Shown one piece after another: positions 40,477-46,550 of a DNA stretch of 64,000 nt. This DNA comes from Candidatus Heimdallarchaeota archaeon. GTDB taxonomy: Archaea; Asgardarchaeota; Heimdallarchaeia; JABLTI01. A model generated the notes under the pieces. That model saw only the letters and a program-made list of their open reading frames with translations, was not told where the DNA came from and did no database searches. Location of the stretch: assembly GCA_019058275.1 (NCBI GenBank), contig JAHLVW010000036.1, forward strand, positions 89,322 through 153,321, written 5' to 3'. Numbering within the stretch: the stretch's first letter is position 1; every line of letters starts with the position of its first letter. The translations under genes and the position numbers were made by a program.

Positions 40477-40617
40477 ATTCACTTTTTTTTCTCATTTTTT
40501 TATTTTATTATGCTCAGGGATAAATTATAAGAAAAATAATCAAAGGAAAAACCTTAACCATTCATTATTTTAAATAATTAATTATTTTATCTTTTAAATA
40601 ATTTATTCGACGATATG

Positions 40618-40667
40618 TTTATATATAAAATGTTCTGAACTATCTATTGATATACAATATGTTGTGG
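40618..40667 (+). promoter_or_regulatory. Promoter of the nrd operon: TATA box plus an NrdR-box-like operator
   Basis: TTTATATA at 40618. ATACAATATGTTGTGG at 40652-40667 fits the NrdR consensus acaCwAtATaTwGtg; weaker look-alikes at 40637 and 40683. Confidence 0.7.
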
Positions 40668-40794
40668 TTAGGGGAATAAAAAACACAAGGACTGGTATGC
40701 TTGGGTTAGTACACAAAACCAAACATTTCCCTCTAGTAAGAACTCTAAACAGGTAAAATAACTAAAATAAGTAAAAAAAGCCGGAGAAAAAGCG

Positions 40795-43215
40795 ATGAAG
40801 TGTCCATACTGTCAATCACCAAACACAAGAGTGGTTGACAAACGACTGTCAGACGATATGAAACAGAATCGTAGAAGACGAGAATGTCTACAATGCAATA
40901 AACGTTTTACCACTTATGAGCGCGTAGATGATGTTAAGTTAACAATTGTAAAGAAAGATAAAAGACGAGAACCCTTCAATCGTGATAAAATTAAAGCAGG
41001 AATTGTCAGGGCTTGTGAAAAAAGACCAATTAGTCTCGAGGAAATTGAAGAAATAATTGATGAAATCGAAAGTGAACTTCGTCAACATGATGATCTGGAA
41101 ATTGAATCACAATATGTTGGCGAAAAAGTAATGGAAAAACTACGAGAACTAGACGAAGTTGCTTTCATTAGGTTTGCTTCTGTTTATAGACGATTCACTG
41201 ACATTGCTTCTTTTGAAAGAGAACTTGAAAAATTAAAAGTCGTAAAAGAAATACAAATTCCGAGTCAAGATTCTACTGAGTTACTATTGTTGGTAGCAGG
41301 TGACACCAAAGAGGAAATATCAAGCTGGGATCGTGATAAAATAACTGCTGCACTTGTAAAAGAAGCTGGCTTGCCCAAAATTGATGCTGAAGATATTGCT
41401 GCTGAAGTTGAGAGAAAGATTTTCGCATCTGGCATTGATGTTATATCAGTTGATCTCATCAGAAGTTTAGTTGATAATGAACTCTTTATCAAAGGTCACA
41501 GTACAAAACTAGCCCAACAAAGAATTGTTGGTATACCAACTTATGATTTGAACCAACTTATCCTTTCAAAAAGCAAAGAAAACAGTAATGTTGTAGCTAA
41601 TAATCCAGAAGCTGTAAATTTGGCTATTGCTGAAACAATTTTGAAGAAATTTGCTTTACAAGAGTTATTTACACCTGAAGTATCAAATGCACATCGTAAA
41701 GGAATGATCTATCTTCATGATTTGGGATTTCCTGTACGTGTTTATTGTTCAGCACACAGTTTAGAGTATATCAAGAAATATGGCTTGAATTTATTGAATC
41801 TCTCTACTGTTTCCTGCCCTGCGAAACATGCTGACACATTAACAGGTCATCTTAATACTTATCTTGCATCAATGCAAGCATATTATGCTGGAGCTTTAGG
41901 CTTAGCTTATTTGAATATCTTCTATGCACCATTTTTTGTGGGAGTTCCTTATAAACAAATCAAACAAGAAGCTCAACGATTAATTTACTCTTGTAGTCAA
42001 AATGCTTTCTCTCGTGGAGGACAAACATTATTCGTTGATTTCAACATTCATCTTGGCATACCTAATTATCTCAAAGATATTCCCGCAATTGGTCCTGGAG
42101 GAAAGTATACCGGTAAAAATTATGGTGACTATGAAAAAGAAACGCAATTGTTTGCTAAAGCATTAATGGATGTATGGTTAGAAGGCGATTCTCAAGGTAA
42201 GGTCTTTCCATTTCCAAAATTCGATCTTCATGTAGATCAAAGTTCATTCGATGATCCAAAACAATACAAATTGCTACAACACGCTTGTAAAATTGCTTCA
42301 GATAATGGATCAACTTACTTTATCTTTGATCGTAACGATATTAATCTTTCAATGTGTTGCAGATTAAAAACAACTATTAAAGACATGTATATGATCGAAC
42401 ATCCAGAGAGCATGCGTTATTGTGGATTCCAAAATGTAAGCATCAATTTACCACAAGCAGCTTATCGTGCAGGTAAAGGAAACACCAAAGAATGTATCGA
42501 AGAAATAAAACGAGCAATGGACATCGCAATGAAAGCTCACTTAGAAAAGAAGGATTTTGTTTACAAATTAATGACTCAAGAAAATGGAACGTTATGGCAA
42601 ATTGGTAAGTTAGCTGAAGATGGAAGACCTTATGTTGATCTAGAAAAAGCCACCTACATTATTGGTGTAATAGGTCTTAATGAGTGTGTTCAATATTTAA
42701 TCGACGAACAAATGCATGAAAGCGAAAAAGCTTACAAACTAGGATTAAGGCTTATTGCAGGAATGAATCTTAAAGCAAAGAGCCTCCAAGAAGAAAATGG
42801 TCTTACCGTAGCATTAGAAGAAACTCCTGGAGAAAGTGCTCCATTCAAATTTGCTAGAACTGATATTCAAGAGTATCCTAATAGTATCCACTATGTTAAG
42901 GGTGACGTAGAAGAAGGATCTATCTATTATACGAATAGTGCACACTTTGCAGCTGATGCACCTATTGATATAATTGACCGTATTTCAAAACAAGGGAAAT
43001 TCAATACCTTAATTGAAAGTGGTTCTATCACTCATGTATTTATTGGTGAACAAAAAATCTCACCAGAATCTATCATGAACTTGGTTAAGAAAACATGGGA
43101 GAATACCCAGAGCGCTCAAATTGTTTTCTCACCAGAATTCACAGTCTGCAATGACTGTGGAAAAGTTAGTAGGGGTTATGGTCGAGCTATGAGTTCATCT
43201 GCTCACAGCCCATAA
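40795..43215 (+). CDS. nrdD: NrdR-NrdD fusion: NrdR (Zn ribbon plus ATP-cone), a second ATP-cone, and the class III RNR core lacking the glycyl-radical tail
   Basis: MKCPYC...RRRRECLQCNKRFTTYE...AFIRFASVY (NrdR); YLHDL, YCSAH, RGGQT, FPFPK, SMCCRL, EETPGES, YYTNS; ends FTVCNDCGK with no RxxGY. Confidence 0.93.
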   Translation: MKCPYCQSPNTRVVDKRLSDDMKQNRRRRECLQCNKRFTTYERVDDVKLTIVKKDKRREPFNRDKIKAGIVRACEKRPISLEEIEEIIDEIESELRQHDDLEIESQYVGEKVMEKLRELDEVAFIRFASVYRRFTDIASFERELEKLKVVKEIQIPSQDSTELLLLVAGDTKEEISSWDRDKITAALVKEAGLPKIDAEDIAAEVERKIFASGIDVISVDLIRSLVDNELFIKGHSTKLAQQRIVGIPTYDLNQLILSKSKENSNVVANNPEAVNLAIAETILKKFALQELFTPEVSNAHRKGMIYLHDLGFPVRVYCSAHSLEYIKKYGLNLLNLSTVSCPAKHADTLTGHLNTYLASMQAYYAGALGLAYLNIFYAPFFVGVPYKQIKQEAQRLIYSCSQNAFSRGGQTLFVDFNIHLGIPNYLKDIPAIGPGGKYTGKNYGDYEKETQLFAKALMDVWLEGDSQGKVFPFPKFDLHVDQSSFDDPKQYKLLQHACKIASDNGSTYFIFDRNDINLSMCCRLKTTIKDMYMIEHPESMRYCGFQNVSINLPQAAYRAGKGNTKECIEEIKRAMDIAMKAHLEKKDFVYKLMTQENGTLWQIGKLAEDGRPYVDLEKATYIIGVIGLNECVQYLIDEQMHESEKAYKLGLRLIAGMNLKAKSLQEENGLTVALEETPGESAPFKFARTDIQEYPNSIHYVKGDVEEGSIYYTNSAHFAADAPIDIIDRISKQGKFNTLIESGSITHVFIGEQKISPESIMNLVKKTWENTQSAQIVFSPEFTVCNDCGKVSRGYGRAMSSSAHSP

Positions 43216-43267
43216 TTTGAGGAAAGAGTAATAACTCAACGAAAAACCATTCGAGGATAAACAGGCC

Positions 43268-43513
43268 ATGGAACAGGCAAATATTCAGAACAAAATGACT
43301 AAAGTAACAGAAATAGCTACTACTTTAGAACACGAGAATAATATTGAAGCGGGTGTTACATGCTCTCCTAACTGCCCACACTGTAAAAGTGATAATGTTT
43401 ATGGTATGAGCAGAGTAGTTGGTTATTTCAGTGTAATTGAAAACTGGAATAATTCCAAAAAATCAGAGCTAAAGAGAAGGCAGAACGGTAACTACTGGTC
43501 TGATGAAGTCTAA
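43268..43513 (+). CDS. Separately encoded C-terminal glycyl-radical domain of the class III RNR
   Basis: CPHCKSDNVYGMSRVVGYFSVIENWNNSKKSELKRR; GAGGA RBS; two in-frame stops upstream. Confidence 0.88.
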   Translation: MEQANIQNKMTKVTEIATTLEHENNIEAGVTCSPNCPHCKSDNVYGMSRVVGYFSVIENWNNSKKSELKRRQNGNYWSDEV

Positions 43514-43624
43514 TTAGAAGACCTTCACCAACAGGAACCAAATTCCCTTCTCTCCTCTTATCTTTTTTAAGGTAAAAATCAAACTAAAAGATAATAGTAT
43601 TAATAAAAATGAGGTAATATAAAT

Positions 43625-43885
43625 ATGAAATTAAAAATATTCATAAAAACAGATTGTCCAAATTGCCCAGCAGCAAAAGAAGTTGGGAAACAACTTGAAA
43701 GCAAAGGTGCAAACATAGAGTGGTTTGACCTTGATAATGAAGATGGATTGTCTGAAGCAGCTTATTTTGATGTGCTCTCAACACCATCATTGATTGTTAT
43801 TGATGAAGATGATAATGAAGTAAAGGCATGGCGTGGAGATATGCCAGAAATAGAGATATTACAAAAAGAATTACAAATAAAATAA
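43625..43885 (+). CDS. Thioredoxin/glutaredoxin-like (NrdH-like) redoxin
   Basis: CPNC active site and VLSTP cis-Pro loop, within the nrd operon. Confidence 0.85.
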   Translation: MKLKIFIKTDCPNCPAAKEVGKQLESKGANIEWFDLDNEDGLSEAAYFDVLSTPSLIVIDEDDNEVKAWRGDMPEIEILQKELQIK

Positions 43886-43902: not shown

Positions 43903-44607
43903 TTGCCCAAATTAGAAATTAAGGGATATAAGCAAGGATCACTAATTGAATGGTCAGGATTAGTAGTTGATAGTATTTTCTTAGCGGGATGTGATTTTCG
44001 ATGTCCATATTGTCACAATCCTGATTTAGTTTTTACAGATAAAGTCGAAAGTTATGATGTTAACGAAGTCTTAGCTGAGATTGTTAAAAGGGCAAAAAGC
44101 AAATGGCTTGATGGCGTTTCAATAACTGGAGGGGAACCAACCCTTAGTAAGAGATTACCTGATTTCCTAAGAATAATAAAAAACATGGGATTAAAAACTA
44201 AATTTGATACAAATGGAAATCATCCAGATGTAGTGAAAAAAATGATCGAAGAAAATCTAGTAGATTATATTGCTATGGATGTAAAAGCAACACCAGAGAA
44301 ATATCATTTAGCTACAGGGAAAAAAGTGGATATGAAACCAATAAAAGAGACGATTAAAATAATAATTAATTCTGGATTGGATCATGAATTTAGAACAACA
44401 GTTGCACCAACAATTGTGGATCCCATAAAAGATATCCCAAAAATAGCTACAATGATTAAAGGTGCAAAAAGATTTTACATACAGCAATTTAGACCACTTA
44501 GATGTTTAGATAAAAAATTCGAAAAAATGGAACCTTATACCTTAGCAGTTCTTGAGAAAGCTTGGAATAAAGTAAAGGATAAATTCGAGGTTTGTGAAAT
44601 CAGATAA
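43903..44607 (+). CDS. nrdG: Anaerobic ribonucleotide reductase activating protein (radical SAM)
   Basis: GCDFRCPYCHN, ITGGEPT, DTNG, IAMDVKA, EFRTT. Confidence 0.93.
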   Translation: MPKLEIKGYKQGSLIEWSGLVVDSIFLAGCDFRCPYCHNPDLVFTDKVESYDVNEVLAEIVKRAKSKWLDGVSITGGEPTLSKRLPDFLRIIKNMGLKTKFDTNGNHPDVVKKMIEENLVDYIAMDVKATPEKYHLATGKKVDMKPIKETIKIIINSGLDHEFRTTVAPTIVDPIKDIPKIATMIKGAKRFYIQQFRPLRCLDKKFEKMEPYTLAVLEKAWNKVKDKFEVCEIR

Positions 44608-44708: not shown

Positions 44709-46550
44709 TTGGCAAAGATTCAAACATTAGTACATAAAGGAGTTCTCGTAAACGAAATACTACATATAGGGTTGGGTATTGAAATTGACGGTAAATCACA
44801 TAAACTTACACCAAAACAAGAACAAATGGCAATTGCTTGGGTAAAGAAACTTTCAACAGTTTATGTTGAGGATCCAATTTTTTGTAAGAACTTCTTCAAA
44901 GATTTTAGTAAAGAACTAGGGCAACCAAGTTTAACGGATGAAAATATAGACTTCTCTGAAGTAATTACACATATTGAAGCTGAACGAACAGCTAGAGAAG
45001 CAATGACGAAAGAAGAAAAGAAAGCAGCAAGAGAAGATAGAAAAGTAATTCGTGAAGACCTAAAGAAAGAATATGGAACCGCTTTATTAGATGGTGTAGA
45101 GGTCGAAATATCAAATTATATTGCTGAACCAAGTAGCATATTCATGGGGAGAGGAGAACACCCAATGAGGGGAAAATGGAAAGAGGGTCCTGAAAAAAGT
45201 GACATTATTTTGAATCATAGCTCAAAAGATCAGCTAAATGAAAGTGATTGGAAAGTAATCGTTTGGGAACCAGAATGTTTATGGATTGCAAAATGGGAAG
45301 ATAAACTCTCAGGTAAAACAAAATATGTTTGGTTATCTGATAATACTCCTATTAAGCAAGATAGAGAAATTGAGAAATATGATAAAGCTAGGTTGGTTGG
45401 TGACAATCTAGGGAAAATCAGATCTAAAACAATGAACGCAATAAGAAGTGAAGACAAAGCAAAAAGAAAAATCGCAACAGCATGTTATTTAATTGATTAT
45501 TTAACCATGCGTGTTGGTGATGAAAAAGATGAAGATGAAGCTGACACAGTTGGTGCAACAACCTTACGACCAGAACATATAACAATAAATGGTAATATTG
45601 TGAAATTCAATTTTCTAGGAAAAGACTCTGTTGAATGGAATAAGAAGGAAGAATTTCCAGATGAAGCTATTAAAGTTCTGAAAGAACTAATAGAAGAGGC
45701 TAATAATTCAGGGGAAGATAAACCTCAGATTTTTGGAAATATTGGCAGTCGTCATGTCAATGCTTTTCTGGGTGAAATTGTTGATGGGTTGACAGCTAAA
45801 GTCTTTAGAACATATCATGCTACTAGCATAGTTGAAAAACATATTGAAGAAGCAGACGTAGATTCAAATGATCCTGATTTTGTAAAGAAAGAAGCAGCAG
45901 TTATGGCTAATAGAGAAGCAGCAATTAATTGTACTCATATGAAGCAAGAACCAAAGAATTGGGAAAATAGGATTCAACGATTCAGAGAGCGAAAAATAAA
46001 AGCTAATGTACGACTAGATAAAGCAAAAGCTAACCAAGAGAATAGAGAAATGAGATTGGAAGATCTCAAAGAGAATTTAAAACTAAGAAGAAAAGCAGCG
46101 AAAGAACAACAGAAAATACTTGAGCAAACAAAAGCTGATTTAGAAGAAATAAAAAGCATGGAAGTGAATCCAGAGGACAAAAAGGAAAAAGAACGACATA
46201 AGAAAGCAATAGAGAAAGCCAAGAAAAAAGTTGAGACAAAGAAAAAACGAATGATAACAGCTGAGAAAAGAATTGATACAGCTAAAGGACAAATAGAGAG
46301 AGGAAAGAATAGTCTAGGAACAGCAAAGGAACGAATATACAAAGCTAAACTAGCGTTAAAGAAAATTGAATCACAAGAAAGAATCTCAAAGAAAACTAAG
46401 ACATGGAACTTAGGAACAAGTTTGAAATCATATATTGATCCAAGAGTCTATTACAATTGGGGTAAAGAAGTAGATTATGATTGGCGAAATTACTATTCAA
46501 ATACTTTACAAAAGAAGTTTTCTTGGGTTGAAAGAGAAGAAAATGACTAA
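44709..46550 (+). CDS. top1: DNA topoisomerase IB, eukaryote-like large type
   Basis: GRGEHPMRGKWK, RVGDEK, DTVGATTL, FLGKDS, AKVFRTY, CTH, a coiled-coil linker, and GTSLKSYIDPR (catalytic Tyr). Confidence 0.93.
   Translation: MAKIQTLVHKGVLVNEILHIGLGIEIDGKSHKLTPKQEQMAIAWVKKLSTVYVEDPIFCKNFFKDFSKELGQPSLTDENIDFSEVITHIEAERTAREAMTKEEKKAAREDRKVIREDLKKEYGTALLDGVEVEISNYIAEPSSIFMGRGEHPMRGKWKEGPEKSDIILNHSSKDQLNESDWKVIVWEPECLWIAKWEDKLSGKTKYVWLSDNTPIKQDREIEKYDKARLVGDNLGKIRSKTMNAIRSEDKAKRKIATACYLIDYLTMRVGDEKDEDEADTVGATTLRPEHITINGNIVKFNFLGKDSVEWNKKEEFPDEAIKVLKELIEEANNSGEDKPQIFGNIGSRHVNAFLGEIVDGLTAKVFRTYHATSIVEKHIEEADVDSNDPDFVKKEAAVMANREAAINCTHMKQEPKNWENRIQRFRERKIKANVRLDKAKANQENREMRLEDLKENLKLRRKAAKEQQKILEQTKADLEEIKSMEVNPEDKKEKERHKKAIEKAKKKVETKKKRMITAEKRIDTAKGQIERGKNSLGTAKERIYKAKLALKKIESQERISKKTKTWNLGTSLKSYIDPRVYYNWGKEVDYDWRNYYSNTLQKKFSWVEREEND

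Follow-up and report, generated by a model that had tools for sequence, protein, structure and literature searches.

An archaeal NrdR-NrdD fusion, the paired NrdR boxes at its promoter and its separate radical subunit

The fused gene, its spread and its origin

The stretch of DNA considered here (the window) comprises 64,000 nucleotides of contig JAHLVW010000036.1 (positions 89,322 to 153,321, forward strand) from Candidatus Heimdallarchaeota archaeon (assembly GCA_019058275.1). It holds a gene, nrdR-nrdD, in which NrdR, the nucleotide-sensing repressor of ribonucleotide reductase (RNR) genes, continues into NrdD, the class III reductase. An earlier note, made from the letters of the window alone, had singled out this gene together with an NrdR box at its promoter, and its statement that the nrdR part passes into the nrdD part without a stop or an internal start agrees with the single frame at 40795-43215. 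The gene is laid out as follows, with positions counted from the first nucleotide of the window:

40783-40786, + strand, Shine-Dalgarno-like GGAG of the fused gene
40795-43215, + strand, fused gene nrdR-nrdD (large subunit), 806 amino acids (aa) in one open frame without a stop
40795-40920, + strand, NrdR zinc ribbon, aa 1-42 (PF22811, 64.8 bits), with cysteines C3, C6, C31 and C34
40942-41202, + strand, NrdR-type ATP-cone, aa 50-136 (PF03477), the sole canonical cone of the fused protein
41230-41241, + strand, fusion junction KLKV, aa 146-149, where NrdR homology ends and NrdD homology begins
41314-41511, + strand, degenerate second ATP-cone, aa 174-239 (PF03477, 30.8 bits, profile positions 9-76 of 88)
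41578-43173, + strand, NrdD catalytic core, aa 262-793 (PF13597, profile positions 1-518 of 562; TIGR02487)
43147-43158, + strand, first CxxC of the C-terminal zinc site, within the NrdD core

The NrdR equivalog model TIGR00244 matches aa 1-147 over its full length (147/147 profile positions; 197.5 bits, cut-off 124.65), and solved structures of E. coli NrdR align end to end with the same residues (E = 3e-42). A complete NrdR with zinc ribbon and ATP-cone had been claimed for the first ~148 aa, and this is borne out. The size of a stand-alone NrdR (about 140-220 aa) is exceeded, the chain running on into NrdD to a total of 806 aa. The class III core was also correctly recognized, with TIGR02487 above its cut-off (354.1 bits, cut-off 326.35) and PF13597 matching at 374.9 bits. 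The folds of the NrdR and NrdD parts are settled by their homology to solved NrdR structures and to unsplit NrdD. The core contains a CCRL finger loop (C521, C522), and C318, C521, C522, R523 and L524 are unchanged across 13 diverse fused proteins; going by the motifs of NrdD, these residues would belong to the active site. A second ATP-cone had been described as well; the domain is present, but in degenerate form, and the canonical cone of NrdD is absent.

A search covering 5.8 billion proteins was used to establish how widely this architecture occurs, and the best 120 protein clusters were examined. PF22811, PF03477 and PF13597 were found together in 100 of them, with source labels that include Heimdallarchaeota, the Asgard group, Bathyarchaeia, Aenigmatarchaeota and Micrarchaeota. 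In all 100 fused clusters, 220-239 aa separate the zinc ribbon from the NNPE motif of the core, and the junction is uniform across them. A separate scan of species-representative genomes returned 534 related loci, of which 80 were fetched along with metagenome contig L002. NrdR and NrdD share one frame in 24 of the 80 and in L002, which is syntenic with the window, and all 25 of these fused loci are archaeal (Heimdall, DPANN, Bathyarchaeia). The earlier note had asked whether the architecture recurs in other genomes or whether close homologs are always separate genes; the 100 clusters and 25 loci carry the identical junction, and the fused frame is thus not peculiar to the window. That two genes were joined by an error of assembly or sequencing finds no support and can for practical purposes be dismissed, given that the architecture occurs in clusters drawn from NCBI, JGI, ENA and Logan assemblies and in the 25 other loci, and that a syntenic relative at 86% identity has an identical 806-aa frame with matching neighbor genes.

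Within the class of the host (83 genomes), the fused gene is confined to the host's own family, where it is present in 9 of the 11 other genomes. In a tree of NrdD cores, the Heimdall group of the host nests among DPANN sequences, which fits acquisition of the fused gene by transfer without implying a direction. The fused design is common among uncultured archaea, and DPANN lineages and one Heimdall family usually have NrdD in this form. The one other NrdR match in the class (G009:C650:381-830) is a stand-alone NrdR of 159 aa at 33% identity; it lies on a very small contig in a genome of another family and may be contamination.

A different account of the fusion would have it split by proteolysis or by internal initiation, leaving free NrdR and a cone-less NrdD to act separately as they do in bacteria. 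In its favor, conservation is poor around the junction (aa 148-170), where the sequence looks like a linker, but no ATG, GTG or TTG accompanied by a ribosome-binding site occurs there in the window (the codons of KVV read aaa gtc gta). Moreover, the released NrdD would be without a functional activity cone, and the uniformity of the junction in 100 clusters also speaks against separate products; the account is accordingly regarded as quite improbable.

The origin of the fused gene may be read from its nearest relatives. Bacteria (Planctomycetota including Brocadia, Omnitrophota and Nitrospirota) make up the sister clade in the core tree, and there, as in one subgroup of Woesearchaeota, nrdR is a separate open reading frame (ORF) directly upstream of nrdD. 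These operons (L029-L082) hold the closest NrdD cores (53-64% identity) and, like the fused gene, have NrdR box pairs in front of nrdR; they differ in consisting of two genes, in the canonical ATP-cone that their NrdD retains and, at most of the bacterial loci, in a glycyl-radical domain that stands on the main NrdD chain. Unfused NrdDs begin with this cone (aa 5-93 in the NrdD of L048), and by BLASTP the fused protein pairs with the L048 protein from aa 146 (KLKV) onward, opposite aa 98 (also KLKV). Because the fused protein aligns to unfused NrdD only from aa 146 onward, the alignment indicates that NrdR, including its cone, replaced NrdD's own cone rather than being placed before a complete NrdD. 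The degenerate second cone lacks the N-terminal nucleotide-binding hairpin and is found in fused and unfused relatives alike; by its domain content, the fused protein is judged to have one working sensor domain, of the NrdR type. The fusion would have arisen from an nrdR-nrdD operon by an in-frame deletion that removed the stop codon of NrdR together with the N-terminal ATP-cone of NrdD. Although at least four changes of state are needed to place the fusion on the core tree, the AU test does not reject a single origin (p-AU 0.138).

Promoter, operator and candidate binder

Upstream of the fused gene lie the elements of an archaeal promoter and two NrdR boxes, the first element occupying the position of a TFB-recognition element (BRE):

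40606-40617, + strand, block TTCGACGATATG at the BRE position, conserved in Heimdall relatives
40618-40625, + strand, archaeal TATA box TTTATATA, conserved in the window, L002, L005 and L025
40652-40667, unstranded, NrdR box 1 ATACAATATGTTGTGG, 13/16 consensus positions, 18.0 bits, conserved in relatives
40683-40698, unstranded, NrdR box 2 ACACAAGGACTGGTAT, weak, 10/16 positions, 4.5 bits
40703-40712, + strand, GGGTTAGTAC, five bases 3' of box 2, conserved in the window and L002

Both the NrdR box and the TATA box shortly upstream of it had been reported in the earlier note, and each was recovered at its position. The operator had, however, been described as a single box; a second, weak one sits 31 bp downstream of the first. 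The TTCGACGATATG block is, from its position, a candidate TFB-recognition element. Between the end of the TATA box and box 1 are 26 nt, and a similar distance (~25 nt) recurs in Nanohaloarchaeota (L006-L009) and in L016. With the TATA box centered at ~40622, transcription is predicted to start near 40648-40651, and the boxes would then span roughly +4 to +50. When the Heimdall upstream regions were aligned, the TTCGACGATATG block with the TATA box, box 1, box 2 and GGGTTAGTAC stood out as conserved islands, the remainder having diverged. There is some variation within the islands: the TATA box of L003 reads TTTAAATA, and GGGTTAGTAC has one change in L025 (TGGTTAGTAC) and is diverged in L003 and L005. 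Box 2 of the window keeps C4 and G13, and its counterparts at the same position are stronger in L002 and L025 (12/16 in each).

A weight matrix for the NrdR box was built from 80 boxes, from which the window and its close kin were left out, and applied to the 4.12-Mb genome of the host. Box 1 ranked as the third best single site and the box pair as the top-scoring pair genome-wide (22.5 bits, the next pair scoring 17.2). The other top single sites fall within coding sequences, and the operator is the sole intergenic paired site. Across the loci, a pair was counted when its boxes together matched 23 or more of 32 positions and were spaced 31-33 bp apart; by this measure, 81% of the fused and 69% of the unfused loci have one, compared with 0.2% of Markov shuffles, which answers in the affirmative the earlier question of whether NrdR boxes co-occur with the fusion. 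In the histogram, spacings of 31-32 bp are the most frequent and correspond to the canonical three turns of the helix. A wider NrdR regulon in this genome was also considered and is not supported, the other high single sites being intragenic. Beyond box 2, the best candidate for a third box reaches 9/16 positions, as counted by eye, and the leader between the operator and the ATG has no Rfam match and no significant RNA structure (40648-40800, z = +1.2).

Structural work on the NrdR of S. coelicolor has named the residues by which NrdR binds its ligands. By cryo-electron microscopy, R12, R26-R29 and R37 were seen to grip the DNA and D15 and R17 to read it, and K50, E56 and K62 were required for nucleotide binding (PMC9110341). 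All of the named DNA-contact residues (R12, D15, R17, R26-R29, R37) are carried by the window protein, together with those of the nucleotide site (K53, E59, F61 and K65). Conservation was then scored over the 100 fused clusters, whose identity with the window protein is only 55-60%. The four zinc cysteines (C3, C6, C31, C34), R17, R27-R29, R37 and K53 are kept in 100/100, K65 in 99/100 and D15 in 91/100. The fused gene encodes the only NrdR zinc ribbon found in the host genome, and the same is true of five other genomes that carry the fusion. Neither a class I or class II RNR nor a second NrdD core was found in the host genome, which is 92.8% complete.

Given that the operators and the DNA-contact residues are both conserved and that no other NrdR was found, the fused enzyme is the only candidate binder of the boxes, and since only one RNR was found as well, the regulator and its only known target appear to be one gene. 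It is therefore probable, judging from the sequence, that the fused NrdR-NrdD enzyme represses its own operon from the paired NrdR boxes, and the earlier proposal to this effect gains support from the box pairs, the DNA-contact residues and the lack of any second NrdR.

Several points weigh against self-repression. Box 2 is weak and without the A-T step at its center, for which conservation in the matrix is ~95%, and free NrdR requires both boxes. No 22-point pair was found at 4 of the 26 fused loci (the 25 and the window), namely L018, L020, L024 and L028. Simple consensus counting gives 13 equally good pairs genome-wide, from which only the weighted matrix separates the nrd pair. A ribbon tethered to an enzyme of ~90 kDa may be prevented from assembling into the compact tetramer of NrdR. 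Finally, with the genome at 92.8% completeness and 6.8% contamination, 'only NrdR' and 'only RNR' mean that no other was found, not that others are proven absent.

The degeneracy of box 2 and the four loci without a pair would also be explained if the NrdR part had been co-opted purely as an allosteric cone and oligomerization domain, its ribbon no longer binding DNA and the boxes persisting as relics of the ancestral operon; the NrdR cone does occupy the former place of the NrdD cone, where allostery is expected in any event. A ribbon released from DNA binding is difficult to reconcile, however, with R17, R27-R29 and R37 being invariant and D15 kept in 91% of clusters at such low overall identity, or with boxes that form conserved islands in otherwise diverged DNA and that, across several phyla, are paired at the canonical spacing in 81% of the fused loci. 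Purely allosteric use of the NrdR part is hence considered unlikely. There is a slimmer chance still that the ribbon binds the boxes for a non-repressive purpose, such as activation or the tethering of the enzyme to DNA, for which nothing specific speaks. The boxes, at ~+4 to +50 of the predicted start, are where archaeal and bacterial repressors usually bind, NrdR has proved to be a repressor wherever tested (PMC9110341), and a genome with only one intergenic paired site does not suggest an enzyme spread along the DNA.

Proposed autoregulation and its relation to known systems

Self-repression by the fused enzyme can be pictured from what is known of its two parts. The cone of S. coelicolor NrdR binds ATP and dATP together, and in the presence of both the free protein forms a tetramer in which two zinc-ribbon pairs lie on two boxes (PMC9110341). 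A rise in dATP would likewise load the cone of the fused protein with ATP and dATP, and the NrdR modules of two enzyme dimers would pair as in the tetramers of free NrdR, allowing the paired zinc ribbons to bind at 40652-40667 and 40683-40698. Binding at these sites, just downstream of the TATA box and over and after the predicted start, would block the recruitment of RNA polymerase. With the NrdD of Prevotella copri, dATP on the cone inhibits the enzyme and favors tetramers (PMC11226230), and the position of the NrdR-type cone in the fusion would likewise let it turn off catalysis, in the manner of NrdD cones. Both responses would thus issue from one cone and in the same direction, with high dATP stopping catalysis and transcription.

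The fused protein shares with free NrdR (TIGR00244; structures 7P37 and 7P3F from S. coelicolor, 9FVR and 9FXK from E. coli) the zinc ribbon, the DNA-contact and nucleotide residues, the C-terminal RFASVY region and the 16-bp palindromic boxes, paired 31-32 bp apart at an RNR promoter. Free NrdR is also known to autoregulate its own gene, a point on which the fusion may be likened to it. It differs in that free NrdR is a separate protein of 150-200 aa, whereas here NrdR forms the N-terminus of the very enzyme under its control, and in that free NrdR is mainly bacterial, whereas the host of the fusion is an archaeon with a TATA/TFB promoter. P. copri NrdD (8P23; PMC11226230) resembles the fused protein in having an N-terminal ATP-cone before the NrdD core; in the fused protein, however, the cone is that of NrdR and bears a DNA-binding ribbon, and the two cores are distant (E = 2e-14).

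Enzymes that double as regulators have precedents. PutA and BirA are bacterial trigger enzymes, experimentally proven to repress their own genes. The likeness lies in an enzyme and the repressor of its own operon being combined in one polypeptide that is switched by a metabolite of its pathway, as is proposed for the fused NrdR-NrdD; the folds and DNA-binding domains of PutA and BirA are unrelated to it.

NrdR has been treated in the literature as bacterial, as 'rare in archaea' or as having no archaeal orthologues. Searches found no published description of an NrdR-NrdD fusion and no paper combining NrdR with Asgard or DPANN names; the fused architecture is visible in public annotation, and specialists may know of it. 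The spread of the fusion corrects this view of NrdR as rare or absent in archaea, and supports the notion that the NrdR system extends from bacteria into archaea in a fused form that would target its own gene. Two levels of RNR control, transcription through NrdR and allostery through the ATP-cone, seem here to be united in a single protein that has one sensor domain. The fusion may be seen both as a natural experiment on how an ATP-cone couples nucleotide pools to oligomeric state and as a testable case of a bacterial-type repressor module acting on an archaeal TBP/TFB promoter. Free NrdR has been reported to be notoriously unstable in vitro, and for structural work the fusion may prove to be a naturally occurring form that is stable.

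The split glycyl-radical subunit and the neighboring genes

The fused ORF does not encode the entire enzyme, a point that the earlier note had missed. It accounts for the large subunit; the glycyl-radical domain is encoded by a separate gene immediately downstream:

43253-43257, + strand, Shine-Dalgarno-like GAGGA of the small subunit
43268-43513, + strand, NrdD small subunit, 81 aa with its own ATG (PF13597 profile positions 519-560; TIGR02487 541-579)
43373-43384, + strand, second CxxC of the zinc site, in the small subunit
43412-43426, + strand, glycyl-radical motif RVVGY, in the small subunit

The NrdD models stop in the large ORF at positions 518/562 (Pfam) and 537/581 (TIGR) and resume at 519 and 541, respectively, in the next ORF, which is in a different frame. 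The break cuts through the C-terminal zinc site, leaving one CxxC pair on either side; the large ORF does not, therefore, carry the four-cysteine zinc site and the RVxGY loop on one chain, and the site is presumably shared between the large and small chains. Of the 29 other split loci in the archaeal clade, 24 have such a small ORF, bearing CxxC and RVxGY, downstream of the large gene. These ORFs occur in all three frame offsets and at gaps of -43 to +518 nt, often overlapping the upstream stop and always with their own ATG, and among Heimdall relatives the N-terminal extension of the small subunit is conserved as protein. The large chain ends at the same split point in 75 of the 100 fused clusters, and 66 clusters of stand-alone small glycyl-radical proteins were found. 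An intron or a recoding event at the break (43174-43372) was considered and rejected on the grounds that the frames differ, the offsets vary between loci and the small gene has its own ATG and GAGGA. By these comparisons, the split of NrdD is a genuine and widespread two-gene arrangement. No published description of a split NrdD was found in literature searches, and the separate radical subunit represents a new subunit arrangement among the glycyl-radical enzymes.

GrcA (YfiD) is a stand-alone glycyl-radical 'spare part' of pyruvate formate-lyase. As with GrcA, the glycyl-radical loop is borne here by a small separate protein, and an orphan copy is also present in the host genome. Unlike the situation with GrcA, the main chain of the split NrdD has no radical domain of its own, which would make the small protein an obligate subunit, and the small protein supplies two of the four cysteines of the zinc site. 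The active enzyme would accordingly need both the 81-aa subunit, for its glycyl radical and half of its zinc site, and the activase NrdG. A more extended scheme, in which the single cone shuts off catalysis and also forms the tetramer on its own promoter while the radical tip, clamped on by a zinc site common to both chains, serves as a detachable, swappable mini-subunit with an orphan spare, is offered tentatively and is, taken as a whole, rather doubtful. If the tip were detachable, a radical domain damaged by oxygen could be exchanged, with the orphan copy as a spare.

The orphan second small subunit of the host (P0175, 80 aa; G000:C52:16971-17102, at about 1417-1659 of L084) lies far from the nrd operon, between uvrA-like and amidohydrolase-like genes. 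No ATG, GTG or TTG precedes its CxxC, and ATT would have to serve as the called start. A second small-subunit paralogue, of ~70 aa, is also present in other Heimdall genomes, and P0128 and P0177 derive from one metagenome-assembled genome. An independent split of NrdD at another point was observed in the bacterial relatives L037, L044 and L056; there, the main chain has both CxxC pairs and lacks the glycyl loop, and an ORF of ~100 aa downstream ends in RIVGY. In Brocadiales and relatives (L057, L071, L079, L060), NrdD-like genes that adjoin nrdR have a degenerate glycyl-radical motif (e.g., IQRLDSY) and no small radical ORF nearby; these may be non-radical paralogues.

Two further genes follow the small subunit:

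43625-43885, + strand, thioredoxin/glutaredoxin-like protein, 86 aa (PF13192, PF00462)
43903-44607, + strand, NrdG, radical-SAM activase (TIGR02495 NrdG2, 197 bits, cut-off 131)

The thioredoxin/glutaredoxin-like protein is, from its position, a candidate reductant of the RNR. Between the small-subunit gene and the thioredoxin-like gene lie a run of six T (43563-43568) and, after it, an AT-rich stretch; together they may form a partial terminator and an internal promoter, and the operon may have two transcripts. Directly 3' of nrdG is a gene for a eukaryote-type topoisomerase IB (44709-46550), the domains of which (Topoisom_I_N, Topoisom_I, Topo_C_assoc) were seen in the syntenic L002. An NrdR-box-like sequence, ATACTACATATAGGGT, lies 48 nt inside this gene (44757-44772; 17.3 bits, the fifth best site in the genome). 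P. aeruginosa has an NrdR box at topA; the site in the archaeal topoisomerase gene is probably due to chance, since it is not conserved in L002.

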